Virus genome (UHGV): UHGV-0390448
Direction: 5' to 3' (one strand)
DNA: 64,000 bases
Source of the DNA: a virus
Both the position numbers and the translations under genes were made by a program. Under the pieces are notes generated by a model. The model was not told the DNA's origin and did no database searches. It saw only the letters and a program-made list of their open reading frames with translations. Below are positions 38,784 to 57,900 of the stretch, piece by piece. Every line of letters starts with the position of its first letter. Position 1 is the first letter of the stretch.

Positions 38784-38800
38784 AAATGTTAGAAAACTAA
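38784..38800. promoter_or_regulatory. Operator-like site at the head of the immI-like operon
   Basis: aaatgttagaaaactaa matches the TGTTAGAAAAYTAA family. Confidence 0.55.
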
Positions 38801-39414
38801 TTTATTAATTCAGTCACCATCTGATACAACGTCATTTCATCAGCATTGTGCCGCCTGAAATCTGCTTTGCCGCCTATTTTTCCATCAGCATGAACAGGGA
38901 CCAACCAGGGGTATTGCTCGCGTATCTCTGCTGGCGCTGCGTGTTGATGGTGCCATTTACACAAAGGGAGAACGTATTTATGCGCGTTCTCTGCCGTTCT
39001 CCCGAAGATGTGGTGCAGGGATACCACAGGGCTATGCTGTCCGTGCATATGGCAGGCAATGCAGGGGAGGGCACCGATGGCAGTTTGTATCCGGCGCTCA
39101 TCTGCTGTGAGTGTTCTGCCTTTCAGGCCGCGTGACGCGCGAGTTTTTTTGACAGGAGCAGAAGCGGCCTTCTCTTTTCTTCGCTGTTCATATTGCTTCG
39201 CTTTTTCAATTTTCTTTTGCCGATATTCAGGCGATGCGGCTTTTTCTCGCGCACGCTGCTGCTGGCGTTGAGCTTGCTGAAGACGTTTTGCCCTTTGTTC
39301 CTCCCGCCATTTCGGATCAGCCAGTTTTTGCAGGGCTTTTTGTGTCTGTTTCTCCCAATAGCTTTGCTTCATAGAAATACCCGGTTTGTCTACATCGCCG
39401 CTATGGTTGATCAA
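38797..39414 (-). CDS. ref: Ref-like HNH endonuclease
   Basis: 205 aa; K/R/Q-rich disordered N-terminal half, C-terminal Cys/His cluster (CIACHMHG ... SLHHIFG ... PLCKWHH); perfect palindromic operator directly upstream. Confidence 0.5.
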   Translation of the reverse strand: MINHSGDVDKPGISMKQSYWEKQTQKALQKLADPKWREEQRAKRLQQAQRQQQRAREKAASPEYRQKKIEKAKQYEQRRKEKAASAPVKKTRASRGLKGRTLTADERRIQTAIGALPCIACHMHGQHSPVVSLHHIFGRTAENAHKYVLPLCKWHHQHAAPAEIREQYPWLVPVHADGKIGGKADFRRHNADEMTLYQMVTELIN

Positions 39415-39415
39415 A

Positions 39416-39449
39416 TGTGTTAGAAAATCAAAATTGATTTTCTAACACA
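39416..39449. promoter_or_regulatory. Perfect 34-bp palindromic double operator
   Basis: tgtgttagaaaatcaa-aa-ttgattttctaacaca, 2 nt upstream of the ref-like start and about 170 nt upstream of the divergent plus-strand genes. Confidence 0.7.
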
Positions 39450-39617
39450 AAATGAAGATACTTTTTTTCATACGCTATATCAGGAGGTCATGATGCTTGT
39501 CGCAATAAGTGCAATCCACCAGCAATCCGGTACAGAAATTGGGTTGCTATATGCCCTGTTTTTCACTGTCCTGGCGTTGTTTGAGCTGGGCATTGAACTC
39601 TTTGCTCTCATCAACTT

Positions 39618-40256
39618 TTGCGTAACGTTCCTGGGGAAACTTTGATGGCTATACGCATTATGAAAATTTACATCGCGGGTCCGATGACTGGTTATCCCGA
39701 CTACAACCGCACAGCGTTTTTTTCGAAAGCAAAAGAGCTGATGGAGGCAGGGCATATTGTTCTGAATCCGGCGCTGTTACCTGCTGGCCTCTGCCAGAGC
39801 GAATATATGGATATTTGCCTTGCTATGGTGCGTTCGGCTAATGCGGTCTATTTGCTCAAGGGGTGGGAGGAATCAGTTGGCGCTCGTGCAGAGCACGAGC
39901 TGGCTCAAAAGCTGGGGCTGAATGTAATTTATGAGTCACCAACCAACATTGAATGCCAGGTTGCTCCGCATATTTACCGGGAACTGGTCAATGCACTGCG
40001 TGATATCGCTGCTGTATATCACGGCACAGAACAGCTTCGTGAGCGTTTAGCCCATACCATTTCCTATTACCTGTCTGCATCTCATGAGCACAAGCTCCGT
40101 CAGAAGGTAATGATCAAATTTATCATGAGGTTATCGAAATCCCTGGCAAACGCCGATCCAAAGAATCCATTACCGAAAGAGGCAATGAATTACCTGAAGT
40201 CCTGCAACATTGTTTCTGAAGATGGCGTTCTTTTGGTTAGAAGGAGTTCTGCGTGA
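39618..40256 (+). CDS. DUF4406-like (nucleoside 2-deoxyribosyltransferase fold) protein with C-terminal extension
   Basis: Contains MKIYIAGPMTGYPDYNRTAFF...VLNPA, the signature I associate with DUF4406; start may be at an internal Met near 39660. Confidence 0.45.
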   Translation: MRNVPGETLMAIRIMKIYIAGPMTGYPDYNRTAFFSKAKELMEAGHIVLNPALLPAGLCQSEYMDICLAMVRSANAVYLLKGWEESVGARAEHELAQKLGLNVIYESPTNIECQVAPHIYRELVNALRDIAAVYHGTEQLRERLAHTISYYLSASHEHKLRQKVMIKFIMRLSKSLANADPKNPLPKEAMNYLKSCNIVSEDGVLLVRRSSA

Positions 40257-41293: not shown

Positions 41294-41712
41294 GCAACAT
41301 CGACATCGATACACTGGCGCTGCGTGAGGCGGCAGAAGCAATAAAAATAGCAGCCACACCACAAAAATTGCTGGCATTTCGTATGAAAGTCACACCTCAG
41401 GTTGTGCTGGCACTGCTGGATGAACGGGAAAGAAACCAGCAATACATCAAACGCCGTGACCAGGAGAACGAGGATATTGCGCTAACGGTAGGGAAGCTGC
41501 GCGTTGAGCTTGAAGCAGAAAAACAGCGGGCAAAGGTTCTATTTATGGAAAATGCTCGGCTTAAGTCAGGCATAGCCGGTCTGATACACCTCGGTATTCG
41601 ATATGCAGATGTTGAGGTCATGAAAATTGCTGGAGATGCCCAGCTTTCTACCCCATGCACTGACAGCATCATAAACAGCATTGCAACAGGCATTCGCATC
41701 AAAGGAGAGTGA
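41290..41712 (+). CDS. Ead/Ea22-like protein
   Basis: N-terminus [17 protein letters not shown] ... [38 protein letters not shown] matches the lambdoid Ea22 family pattern. Confidence 0.6.
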
Positions 41713-41713
41713 G

Positions 41714-42037
41714 ATGACCACATCGCATTCTGCAATCACCCAGGAAAAAGTATTTCGCTTGCTCGAACGTCTGGAGGCGCTCGCCACGGAGGAGGATATA
41801 TCCCCGGAGATGCTGGTCGAGTGCAGCCGTGTGATATTGCGTCGCAAGAACGACATCGCGCGGCTGACATCTGGCGCACCATCCGTATCAGCCAGTCCAA
41901 CGCTTTATTGCAGCTTCTGCAACAAATCCCAGCACACCGTTAAAAAGTTAATTGCCGGGGACAACGTTTTCATCTGCAACGAGTGCGTGAAAGATTGCAA
42001 CAACATTATCCAGGAAGAGCAAAGGGAATCAGCATGA
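41714..42037 (+). CDS. Small protein with ClpX-type zinc-binding-domain-like C-terminus
   Basis: C-terminal [36 protein letters not shown] parallels the ClpX N-terminal zinc finger (LYCSFCGKSQHEV.KLIAG..V.IC.ECV). Confidence 0.55.
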
Positions 42038-43234: not shown

Positions 43235-43542
43235 GCATCATTGTAGAAATGCCGGTAGAACGTGATGAATATGGCTGCTGGACACATCCGGAGTATGAAA
43301 AGTTTTGTGCAGGGCGTGAATATATTTCAACGGAAGAATTTGACGCATGGTTGAAGGCAAATAATCTTCAGTGGACCATCCAAACTATGGATGAAGATGA
43401 TTTTAATCTGGACGCAGATGGTCCCGATATTGCCGCCTGGGAACCGGAGCGACCAGAGGGCGAAGGCTGGTTTGTTGGCTCTATTCATGACACTGAAGAT
43501 GGTCCGGTTTGTGTCTGGCTGCGGGAGAAGGTTGCCGCATGA
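43231..43542 (+). CDS. Hypothetical small protein
   Basis: 103-aa ORF in the same overlapping array. Confidence 0.4.
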
Positions 43543-44225
43543 CCCAGGTGCTGCATGAAGTGAATTTATATAGCCGTATTGATGGTTCAGGCTACAGAAA
43601 CATATGGGTTGTTGGTGATTTGCACGGTTGCTACACCCTACTTATGAATGAACTCCATCGTGTGGATTTTGACCCTACACAGGATTTACTGATATCGGTT
43701 GGCGACCTTATCGATCGCGGCACCGAAAATGTTGAATGCCTGGAGCTATTGCAGATGCCCTGGTTTCGGTCGGTTATGGGAAACCACGAGCGATTAATGA
43801 TCGATGCGTTAAGTCCCGCAGGCAACGTGAATAACTGGCTAATGAATGGTGGTCAATGGTTCTTCATGCTGGACGCTGATCGGGAAATATTAGCCAGGGC
43901 GCTGGTGGAGCTGGTAAGACGTTTGCCCTATATCATTGAGTTGAACACCGGGCATGAAACTATCGTTATAGCCCATGCCGACTATCCTGATAACGAATAC
44001 CAGTTTGGTAAACCTGTTAGCGATCTCAATGTTACCTGGCGGCGTGAGCGATTTTATGACGCGGTTGATGGTGTTGGTGGAATGATCACTGGCGCAGATA
44101 GCTTTATTTTCGGGCATACGCCAGTAAACAGCCCGAAATCTTTCTGGAACCAGCACTACATAGACACTGGCGCGGTTTTTTGCGGAAATCTGACGCTAAA
44201 GCAGGTGAAGGGAGGGCAGTTGTAA
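43539..44225 (+). CDS. Ser/Thr protein phosphatase (lambda-phosphatase-like metallophosphoesterase)
   Basis: GDLHGC, GDLIDRG and GNHE motifs in the canonical order. Confidence 0.8.
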
Positions 44226-44255: not shown

Positions 44256-44288
44256 GATGTTAGAATATTGATTTTAATTTTCTAACAG
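44256..44288. promoter_or_regulatory. Inverted pair of operator-like sites
   Basis: gatgttagaatattgattttaattttctaacag upstream of the ORF at 44330. Confidence 0.55.
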
Positions 44289-55829: not shown

Positions 55830-56492
55830 TCACTCCACAACAAACCAGTCACAGGCCAGCAGGTCGCCAACTGAAGGCACCCACGGAACAACTACACCTT
55901 GTGCATTTTTTAAGGCGAAATAAGCACCATACGGAACGAGGTCGCCGGGGAAATATCCCTTAATGGCTTCCATTCGTGCCGGGTACTGTCCTTCAGGAAC
56001 CAGCCAGCAGAATTGGTTTTCGCCGTTCCACCCGCGTCGAGCAACTTTCTTGCCATCCTTCAGCCACATCAGCGCGTCAGAAAAGTCGGCTGCTTCAAGG
56101 TCGATTTCTTCTTGTAGAGTAGCGATACCGCCAGCAGAAATAGTTACGTCCCTGGCTGTAATGAATGTCACCCCATTGTGACCTTCAATGCTGAGCAATG
56201 TCCCATTTTCGAAGGCGTCGTTAACCCGGCTATAGCATTTTTCAAATGCTTTCTCTGGCACATAGACCAGATAGCCATTTTCAGCAGTGACGAGATATCC
56301 TCCTATTTGCGGGCGGAATTTTTCCAAGAACACACCATCAACACGAAGCGTCATTCCTTTTGGCTCAACGACTTCGATACTGCCAAAAATGGGCGCATAA
56401 TCTTCGCCGACAATAACAATATCTTTGATTTTCGATGCCCGAATGATGCTGTGGCATTTGTATTTGGGGAACACCTGAAAAGTGCTGACCAT
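55830..56492 (-). CDS. Two-domain protein with C-terminal DUF2829 (Tad2-like) domain
   Basis: C-terminal ~85 aa (FSDALMWLKDGKKVARRGWNGENQF...VPYGAYFALKNAQGVVVPWVPSVGDLLACDWFVVE) matches the DUF2829 signature; N-terminal ~130 aa unassigned. Confidence 0.55.
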   Translation of the reverse strand: MVSTFQVFPKYKCHSIIRASKIKDIVIVGEDYAPIFGSIEVVEPKGMTLRVDGVFLEKFRPQIGGYLVTAENGYLVYVPEKAFEKCYSRVNDAFENGTLLSIEGHNGVTFITARDVTISAGGIATLQEEIDLEAADFSDALMWLKDGKKVARRGWNGENQFCWLVPEGQYPARMEAIKGYFPGDLVPYGAYFALKNAQGVVVPWVPSVGDLLACDWFVVE

Positions 56493-56506: not shown

Positions 56507-57001
56507 TTAAAACTTTTCGTACTGAAGCGGTGTACGCTTGATTTCAACGCGGCCTTCCGATGTGCTACCAAAACCACCAGCACCTCGCTCTGTTTCATCG
56601 AGTTCATCAACTTCTACCAGCGATACCGGTTCAACACGCTCAAAAATGCCTTGCATGACCGCCATTCCAGGCTTGAGGCAAACACCTTCACCACCGGGAT
56701 CTGTAATCAGTTTTGCCATGATTTCACCGCGATAATCGGCGTCGATAATTCCTACGCAGTTAGCCAGGCGCGTATGCTTTTTGCAGCCCAATCCGGAACG
56801 AGGATAAAGTTTCAGACACCAACCAGGAGGGATCGCCATAGCGAGGCCGGTATGCACCCACCAGCTTGAGGAAATAGCGCCATTGCTATCGATACCAGGC
56901 GTTATTTCAACAGCAACAAAATCCATCGCCGCCGATCCGGCGGTGGCGTAAACGGGGAGTTTTGCCGCCGGATGAAGGCGTTTCACTTTCACGTTAATCA
57001 T
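56507..57001 (-). CDS. dut: dUTP diphosphatase (dUTPase)
   Basis: 164 aa; LPVYATAGSAAMDF, RSGLG, IDADYRGE and C-terminal GFGSTS motifs collinear with E. coli Dut. Confidence 0.8.
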   Translation of the reverse strand: MINVKVKRLHPAAKLPVYATAGSAAMDFVAVEITPGIDSNGAISSSWWVHTGLAMAIPPGWCLKLYPRSGLGCKKHTRLANCVGIIDADYRGEIMAKLITDPGGEGVCLKPGMAVMQGIFERVEPVSLVEVDELDETERGAGGFGSTSEGRVEIKRTPLQYEKF

Positions 57002-57869: not shown

Positions 57870-57900
57870 ACTGTCTAAAAAGATTGTTAGAAAATTAATT
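57870..57900. promoter_or_regulatory. Tandem operator-like sites between the recombinase gene and the downstream operon
   Basis: actgtctaaaaag + attgttagaaaattaatt; the second is a full match to the TGTTAGAAAAYTAA family. Confidence 0.55.

Follow-up and report, generated by a model that had tools for sequence, protein, structure and literature searches.

The DUF4406 gene and its annotation

The DNA analysed here is a stretch of 64,000 nucleotides (UHGV-0390448, referred to throughout as the window) from a D6/P1-like phage-plasmid of E. coli. Our subject is a gene on its plus strand at 39645..40256, which encodes a protein of 203 amino acids (aa) made up of a DUF4406 domain (residues 6-96; 39660..39932, +) followed by a C-terminal extension. 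DNA comparison shows 99.8% identity between a 3-kb region containing the gene and the E. coli plasmid pMUB-MIN14-1; over its first 2.2 kb, the gene included, this region is 89% identical to phage D6, also a P1-like phage-plasmid. Both the gene and the domain are already known. RefSeq names the product on the near-identical plasmid 'DUF4406 domain-containing protein' (WP_094259661.1), the phage D6 record lists the gene as orf89, 'similar to N-term half gp57 of phage N15', and the domain is described in Pfam.

A first-pass annotation of this DNA had assigned the protein to DUF4406, and had proposed a hidden Markov model (HMM) search with PF14359 as the check. The search confirms the assignment: the Pfam model matches residues 6-96 over its whole length (profile positions 1-91 of 91), with E=4.9e-35 and 120.3 bits against a cut-off of 22. 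Pfam otherwise yields one notable match, a weak hit to DUF1937 (PF09152; structure 1T1J), a related family that is likewise uncharacterised. PHROGs gives a full-length match to phrog_5781, a family of unknown function (E=2.5e-97), and a match to phrog_355, 'nucleoside 2-deoxyribosyltransferase' (E=4e-44). A search of NCBIfam with the protein returned no model matches, and no paralogue of either half of the protein was found elsewhere in the window. The DUF4406 domain is also carried by gp57 of phage N15 and by PY54, at 55-58% identity.

The open reading frame (ORF) as present in the window runs from 39618 to 40256 on the plus strand and reads MKIYIAGPMTGYPDYNRTAFF...LNPA. The gene most likely starts at ATG 39645 and not at TTG 39618, for three reasons. 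Both RefSeq and the phage D6 record place the start at the ATG equivalent to 39645. The D6-type homologues open with MVKRVLKIY and have Leu at the position of Met6 of the window protein, so that a start at the MKIY position is impossible for them. Finally, a TGATG overlap between the stop codon of a small upstream ORF and the start of the DUF4406 gene is invariant in four diverged loci. The small ORF (39490..39645, +) encodes 51 largely hydrophobic residues, MMLVAISAIHQQSGTEIGLLYALFFTVLALFELGIELFALINFCVTFLGKL; it has a strong ribosome-binding site (AGGAGG, 6 nt upstream of its ATG), matches phrog_8890 with E=6.9e-31, and is annotated in pMUB-MIN14-1 and, as orf88, in phage D6. Its product is probably a small membrane peptide. 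Given that this ORF comes first, the DUF4406 gene is the second gene of its operon, and not the first plus-strand gene after the operator as had been proposed; it is probably translationally coupled to the 51-aa ORF.

Fold and candidate active site of the domain

AlphaFold predicts residues 1-100 with a predicted local distance difference test (pLDDT) score of about 90, the four strands of the model being separated by helices. The predicted structure is an α/β fold with a parallel sheet, of the deoxyribosyltransferase/TIR-like type, and it matches solved members of the nucleoside 2'-deoxyribosyltransferase (NDT) superfamily. Foldseek searches of the PDB identified NDTs (T. brucei 2A0K, E=5.9e-4), MilB, BlsM, BcmB and DNPH1, all with probability 1.0. 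The best Foldseek and HMM matches were to the NDTs of T. brucei, Leishmania and Chroococcidiopsis. The model and these matches bear out the fold that had been suggested from the sequence motif, and residues 6-96 are a DUF4406 domain that forms a minimal four-stranded member of the NDT superfamily.

Searching the PDB with the single protein sequence gave only a weak match, to the T. brucei NDT (E=0.35). A profile built from 42 family members matched the T. brucei NDT with E=0.0057 and the CMP N-glycosidase BcmB with E=0.076. In the profile alignment, GW-E-x-S77-x-G79-A-x-x-E83-x-x-x-A87 lies on D-C-G-T-A-F-E...A of the T. brucei NDT, and the S77/G79/E83 stretch lies on S-P-G-T-H-I-E...A of BcmB. 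Tyr9 and Pro42, the latter being the proline after strand 2, also align with the T. brucei NDT. Diverse members of the family show little or no variation at Y9, G12, P13, M14, N21, F25, P42, S77, G79, A80, E83 and A87, and 15 of 17 of them retain Asp55. The family pattern YxAGPM.G...N...F...P...L.GW..S.GA..E...A is complete in the window protein, where it comprises Y9, A11, G12, P13, M14, G16, N21, F25, P42, L71, G73, W74, S77, G79, A80, E83 and A87.

The catalytic triad of the superfamily consists of Tyr, Asp/Asn and Glu, with the Glu acting as the covalent nucleophile (PMC12884076). The superfamily Tyr on strand 1, and the Glu with which the helix after strand 3 begins, are found here as Tyr9 and Glu83, both invariant in the family; the Asp/Asn of the superfamily lies on the helix before strand 3. 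Tyr9, Asp55 and Glu83 are listed as candidate catalytic residues, and Gly12, Gly16, Ser77 and Gly79 as candidates for a phosphate site.

Rat DNPH1 binds the 5'-phosphate of its substrate through Ser87, Gly89 and the main-chain amides of Ile18-Arg19-Gly20, a loop that follows strand 1; Ser87 is located six residues before the catalytic Glu93 (PMC3834327). The spacing of Ser77-x-Gly79-x-x-x-Glu83 is the same as that of Ser87, Gly89 and Glu93, and the Gly12...Gly16 loop resembles G16-S-I-R-G20 of DNPH1, in a profile comparison that is not itself significant. More generally, DNPH1/Rcl, MilB and BcmB share with DUF4406 the fold, the Ser-x-Gly-x-x-x-Glu spacing, the Tyr on strand 1 and the Gly-rich loop that follows this strand, at a level of sequence similarity that is marginal or not significant. 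Nucleoside transferases bind the 5'-OH by an Asp/Asn that is absent from the nucleoside monophosphate (NMP) hydrolases and from the phage enzyme DmtZ discussed below (PMC12884076). In DUF4406, the place of the 5'-OH-binding Asp, six residues before the Glu, is taken by the invariant Ser77. At the positions of the 5'-pocket, the DUF4406 sequence thus shows a nucleotide-type pattern.

This pattern bears on the suggestion, implicit in many database names, that DUF4406 is a true nucleoside 2'-deoxyribosyltransferase, swapping bases between deoxynucleosides for salvage. The name of phrog_355 says as much, as do many phage records including annotations of actinophages, although these names are not based on assays. 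NDTs (PF05014; from L. leichmannii and T. brucei, 2A0K) are the best sequence and Foldseek matches, with the catalytic Glu, the Tyr and the Pro all aligning; Pro42 corresponds to the Pro after strand 2 that has been described as typical of transferases (PMC12884076). However, NDTs have an Asp at the 5'-OH site where DUF4406 has Ser, and the DUF4406 domain is shorter. A search of the window protein gave no match to PF05014 (Nuc_deoxyrib_tr) at E<=1, and relatives of the protein reach only 21.7 bits against a cut-off of 28.8. In addition, the fusion partners described in the next section make or use 5'-monophosphates. We therefore consider a nucleoside transferase unlikely.

Gene neighbourhoods of DUF4406 in other phages

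DUF4406 is a large family. At E<=1e-5 the domain matches 4057 protein clusters (at 90% identity), which among the matches listed are mostly stand-alone proteins of 100-125 aa, and it matches 778 phage records, many of them from phages of Mycobacterium, Arthrobacter, Gordonia and Vibrio. The names given to these proteins in GenBank are inconsistent, and include 'nucleoside deoxyribosyltransferase', 'hydrolase', 'MazG-like pyrophosphatase' and 'deoxycytidylate deaminase'. The last two are found on gp51 of Arthrobacter phage LittleTokyo (L178 2480-2854) and gp29 of Arthrobacter phage Elezi (L179 2525-2869). We considered whether these two proteins might be fusions, and rejected this, since both consist of DUF4406 standing alone, with lengths in the range 114-124 aa. 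Neither their size nor their domain content agrees with the labels, which are misnomers and are not counted as evidence here.

In each of five non-enteric contigs, the domain directly adjoins a gene for MazG, dGTP_diPhyd_N (PF18909, formerly DUF5664), DUF6378 or DUF1599, the last of these being 'nucleotide modification associated domain 1'; in two of the five, ThyX and ribonucleotide reductase are encoded in the same cluster. A census of 80 diverse loci from IMG/VR was therefore taken, and shows that the sample of five had overstated the association. Among the 80 loci there are 22 extended ORFs. They include fusions to dGTP_diPhyd_N and to DUF6378, with five cases of each, and in three further cases a fusion to a deoxynucleoside monophosphate (dNMP) kinase. 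With nine further directly adjacent partner genes, 18 of the 80 loci have a partner. The link to nucleotide metabolism that had been proposed for this gene is upheld to this extent, that domains of the deoxynucleoside triphosphate (dNTP) pyrophosphatase type and a dNMP kinase are found fused to DUF4406, or next to it, in other phages.

The nature of these partners is also relevant to a different proposal, in which DUF4406 uses the TIR/SLOG-like face of its fold to act as an anti-defence enzyme or sponge for immune signalling nucleotides or NAD-derived molecules. DUF4406 recurs with dNTP pyrophosphatase-type domains, dNMP kinase, ThyX and ribonucleotide reductase and not with defence genes (no PADLOC search was made), and in the comparison of folds NDT, MilB and DNPH1 outscore the TIR proteins, with the sequence motif also being of NDT type. 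An anti-defence role is on this evidence improbable.

Two other kinds of neighbour recur. A metallophosphoesterase gene shares an operon with DUF4406 in the window (43509-44225, +) and in unrelated phage contigs (L006 4676-5554; L008 978-1736), and metallophosphoesterases are the commonest Pfam family directly upstream of DUF4406 in the census, at six of the 80 loci. Such phosphatases are common in phages, and their recurrence may be due to chance. In phage N15 (L180 2504-3812, genes 57 and 58), the DUF4406 gene overlaps the start of a gene for a DNA cytosine methyltransferase, and DNA methylase genes are also found near DUF4406 in some metagenomic contigs (L005).

A proposed function for DUF4406

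The closest characterised analogue of what these associations suggest is the phage enzyme DmtZ. DmtZ is NDT-like and is encoded next to, or fused with, the Dut-like pyrophosphatase DutZ; it hydrolyses dAMP and transfers the deoxyribose-5-phosphate to another base (PMC12884076). Like DUF4406, it is a phage member of the NDT superfamily with Tyr, Asn/Asp and Glu, it has no 5'-OH-binding Asp, and it has a Pro after strand 2. It is likewise coupled to an enzyme that converts dNTP to dNMP, as DUF4406 is in other phages to DUF5664 (PF18909), proteins of which turn dATP, dGTP and dUTP into monophosphates (PMC12884076, NAR 2026). There are also differences. DmtZ has about 145 aa, five strands and no Pfam model, and belongs to a different branch. 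It acts in PurZ0 phages with Z-containing genomes, whereas no PurZ-type gene is annotated on the plasmid near-identical to the window. The DUF4406 operon of the window contains no pyrophosphatase, the coupling being seen in other DUF4406 members.

Taking these observations together, we propose that the DUF4406 protein cleaves, or transfers at, the N-glycosidic bond of a nucleoside 5'-monophosphate by means of Glu83, early in lytic growth. We would put the probability of this at roughly 0.5. The mechanism would be as follows. In the plasmid state, the operon would be silenced by the prophage repressor, and it would be expressed early after induction or infection. The substrate would be a nucleoside 5'-monophosphate, most likely a dNMP, the 5'-phosphate of which would be held by Ser77, Gly79 and the Gly12-Pro-Met-Thr-Gly16 loop. 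With Tyr9 to position it, Glu83 would act as nucleophile at C1' of the substrate and give a covalent (deoxy)ribosyl-5-phosphate-enzyme intermediate, with an acidic residue on helix 3, probably Asp55, assisting the departure of the base. The intermediate could then be resolved either by water, in which case the enzyme would be a hydrolase comparable to DNPH1 and MilB, or by another base, in which case it would be a phosphodeoxyribosyl transferase comparable to the phage enzyme DmtZ. Overall, the nucleotide pool would be edited or cleaned during lytic growth.

There are a number of points that weigh against this proposal. The first group concerns the structural comparison. The top Foldseek matches are nucleoside transferases and not nucleotide hydrolases, the sequence similarity to solved enzymes is marginal (the best being E=0.0057), and the profile comparison with human DNPH1, in which the DNPH1 query was checked against PDB chains, is not significant. 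The correspondences between residues are taken from alignments and not from a superposition of coordinates, and the register of Asp55 relative to the Asp of NDT and DNPH1 shifts by up to two residues between alignments. The domain moreover ends after strand 4, at residue 96, with the matches covering about 90-100 residues of targets of 130-160 residues. It is about 50 residues shorter than DNPH1, MilB and BcmB and lacks the C-terminal strand and helix that in DNPH1 give Ser117' and Met119' to the partner subunit; in DmtZ, the active-site residue from the second subunit is Trp124 (PMC12884076). Since DUF4406 has no C-terminal segment to feed the active site of a neighbouring subunit, its site must be completed differently, or the same ligands may not bind.

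The second group concerns the genetic context. In the census, 62 of the 80 loci have no partner of the kind described above. DUF6378 showed no cross-matches to MazG or DUF5664 in Pfam, the PDB or BLASTP, and on this ground has not been adopted as a pyrophosphatase. In enteric lambdoid prophages, DUF4406 is a gene of 96-98 aa that lies downstream of the replication genes, in the nin region, and overlaps an Ead/Ea22 or DUF551 gene that comes next; its neighbours here are Ea22/DUF551-type genes instead of a pyrophosphatase or kinase. The same is true of the window, where no pyrophosphatase or kinase partner was found in the DUF4406 operon, the remainder of which is filled by Ea22/DUF551-type genes. 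Finally, in the literature that names DUF4406 we found no functional study of any member.

As a finding, the gene itself is ordinary, and changes little since it is already annotated. It is of wider concern because it represents a phage family of more than 4000 clusters, with matches in 778 sequenced phages, that goes under inconsistent names. Release of the base from dNMPs, if true, would correct these annotations and would bring chemistry of the DmtZ type to phages with ordinary DNA. It would also mean that enterobacterial temperate phages change the nucleotide pools at an early stage of lytic growth.

The C-terminal extension

Typical members of the DUF4406 family stand alone, at about 95-125 aa, and the 203-aa protein of the window departs from this usual architecture (which is not a criterion of Pfam membership) by the addition of a helical extension of 105 aa. 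An extension of roughly 100 aa had been noted in the first-pass annotation, and it is real, being in frame in diverged homologues. It is limited to the D6-type lineage: among 80 enteric loci, seven encode the 203-aa fusion and the other 73 encode a stand-alone domain of 96-117 aa, in most cases 96-98 aa.

The extension (residues 99-203) is a helical cassette of two modules common to the Ea22/DUF551-type proteins of lambdoid phages. Module A (residues 99-150; 39939..40094, +) has the core PHIYRELVNALRDIAAVYHGTEQLRERL, given alternatively as PHIYRELVNALRD...QLRERL, and is common to many of these proteins, being usually found near the C-terminus of Ea22/DUF551-type proteins that are otherwise unrelated. 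In P0107 and P0111 it is present as a tandem duplicate. Module B (residues 151-195; 40095..40229, +), LRQKVMIKFIMRLSKSLANADPKNPLPKEAMNYLKSCNIVSED, follows module A on at least two other N-terminal heads. Modules A and B together are carried by P0108, which has a zinc-ribbon-like head, and by P0112, and segments resembling module B are found in P0113 and P0176. Given that the modules recur on other heads, A+B is a portable C-terminal cassette. At E<=1e-3 the extension has matches in 258 protein clusters, with module A accounting for most of the matches listed; a word-indexed protein search with the extension returned only fragments of the same protein. No Pfam model covers modules A or B, which lie outside the Ead_Ea22 and DUF551 models. 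Using an alignment of 41 sequences, AlphaFold predicts A+B as four helices with a pLDDT of 78.5, and this model has no fold match in the PDB (best E=3.6).

Comparison with a homologue of 68% identity gave a ratio of non-synonymous to synonymous substitution rates (dN/dS) of 0.32 overall, with values of 0.15 for the domain, 0.54 for the extension and 0.39 for module B. The DUF4406 domain is therefore under strong purifying selection, and the extension is translated and under weaker constraint than the domain. A different comparison, of the window with phage D6 (L002 6149-6760), gave a dS of 0.435 for the domain, against 0.028 for the extension. The clear difference between these two values indicates a recombination breakpoint at the domain junction, and thus that the two halves of the gene have different histories.

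It could be argued from this that the fusion is a by-product of mosaic recombination, that the domain has lost its catalytic activity, and that the protein works by way of its Ea22-type cassette, with a role such as that of regulator or adaptor in the choice between lysis and lysogeny or in host takeover. The restriction of the fusion to the D6-type lineage, the position of the breakpoint exactly at the domain junction and the presence of the cassette on other heads would all fit such an origin. A fusion by read-through would moreover be easy, since in lambdoid prophages the Ea22/DUF551 gene, which belongs to the proteins that carry modules A/B and which directly follows DUF4406, overlaps the 3' end of the DUF4406 gene. 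Against it, all of the family-invariant residues are intact, including Tyr9, Ser77 and Glu83, and the domain is constrained as described. The fusion also remains in frame across a dS of about 0.5, with the extension itself at a dN/dS of 0.54. We consider this reading unlikely.

The extension might serve for oligomerisation or for tethering to a partner, although both of these are guesses. A broader proposal can also be made, which we offer tentatively. DUF4406 would be a minimal four-stranded enzyme of the NDT fold that hydrolyses or transglycosylates dNMPs supplied by partner dNTP pyrophosphatases. It would constitute a second and much more widespread pool-editing system resembling that of DmtZ, present in hundreds of sequenced phages with ordinary DNA, and the portable Ea22-type cassette would tether the D6-like version to some partner.

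A probable operator and the control of the operon

A perfect palindrome of 16+16 nt is located at 39416..39449, with arms at 39416-39431 (TGTGTTAGAAAATCAA) and 39434-39449 (TTGATTTTCTAACACA) that are 100% complementary. It lies in the gap of 117 bp that separates the divergent gene ref from the plus-strand operon, whose first ORF starts 40 bp further downstream. The gene on the other side of this shared operator region, ref (38797..39372, -), encodes a Ref-type RecA-dependent nuclease (Pfam RecA_dep_nuc, E=6.2e-36; also annotated in RefSeq and D6). The perfect palindrome is specific to the window: D6 and two other relatives (loci L016 and L017) have an unchanged right arm and a degenerate left arm.

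The palindrome belongs to a dispersed motif. The 14-mer TGTTAGAAAATYAA is found in the window, at no more than one mismatch, at nine sites where 0.03 are expected: 18994, 27766/27782, 38787, 39418/39434, 44258/44274, 57885, 59282 and 63724/63740. Four of these are inverted pairs (27766/27782, 39418/39434, 44258/44274 and 63724/63740). Such a dispersed pattern is that expected of the regulon of a P1-type repressor, as in the C1 operators of P1, and the repeated motif together with the palindrome upstream of the first ORF would fit a repressor-controlled early operon of the P1/D6 type. The motif looks like a putative operator set for the prophage repressor, and the palindrome is probably a bivalent operator for the same repressor. 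Because it forms part of the dispersed motif, the operon is probably under repressor control. The palindromic operator and early expression had both been proposed before. The palindrome is indeed there, and early, repressor-controlled expression of the operon is likely, judging by the operator motif.

An automatic scan of the intergenic region for sigma-70 promoters called no consensus promoter. By eye, a candidate can be picked out that consists of TTGATT, a spacer of 17 nt and GATACT (8/12 consensus), with its -35 element in the right operator arm; no tool supports it. The next inverted pair of the operator motif, at 44258..44287, lies between the metallophosphoesterase gene and a DUF968 gene, and probably marks the end of the operon that is headed by the small ORF and the DUF4406 gene.

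The same operon includes a gene for a protein of 118 aa (41681-42037, +) that consists of little beyond a C4 zinc finger of the ClpX type (E=1.2e-17). This protein could mimic, or compete with, the domain of the host ClpX that binds substrates and adaptors.

DNA modification and the phage dUTPase

The first-pass annotation had suggested two further roles for the gene, in DNA modification and in cooperation with the phage dUTPase, and neither is favoured by the organisation of the window. The DUF4406 operon contains no methylase, glycosylase-type or base-modifying gene. The dUTPase gene, dut (56507..57001, -), is identified by Pfam (dUTPase, E=7.2e-13) and by its RefSeq name 'dut' on the near-identical plasmid; it is located 16 kb away, on the other strand and in a different operon, and the two operons have only the operator motif in common. 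The first gene of the dut operon starts 58 bp from the operator half-site at 57885, which means that the two enzymes may be switched on together. The idea of an NDT-like enzyme acting with a dUTPase is in itself reasonable, given the DmtZ/DutZ pair of phage enzymes (PMC12884076), although the genes of that pair are adjacent or fused, unlike those of the window.

Directly downstream of dut is a gene (55830-56492, -) that encodes a Tad2-like (Thoeris anti-defence 2) domain, with E=1.6e-22, and RefSeq annotates a second gene of the Tad2 family on the near-identical plasmid.

It is worth adding that when coordinates are projected on to the window from NZ_CP069647.1, the 99.8%-identical plasmid, they are about 460 bp off at dut. 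The window and this plasmid thus differ by at least one insertion or deletion between 41.5 kb and 56 kb.

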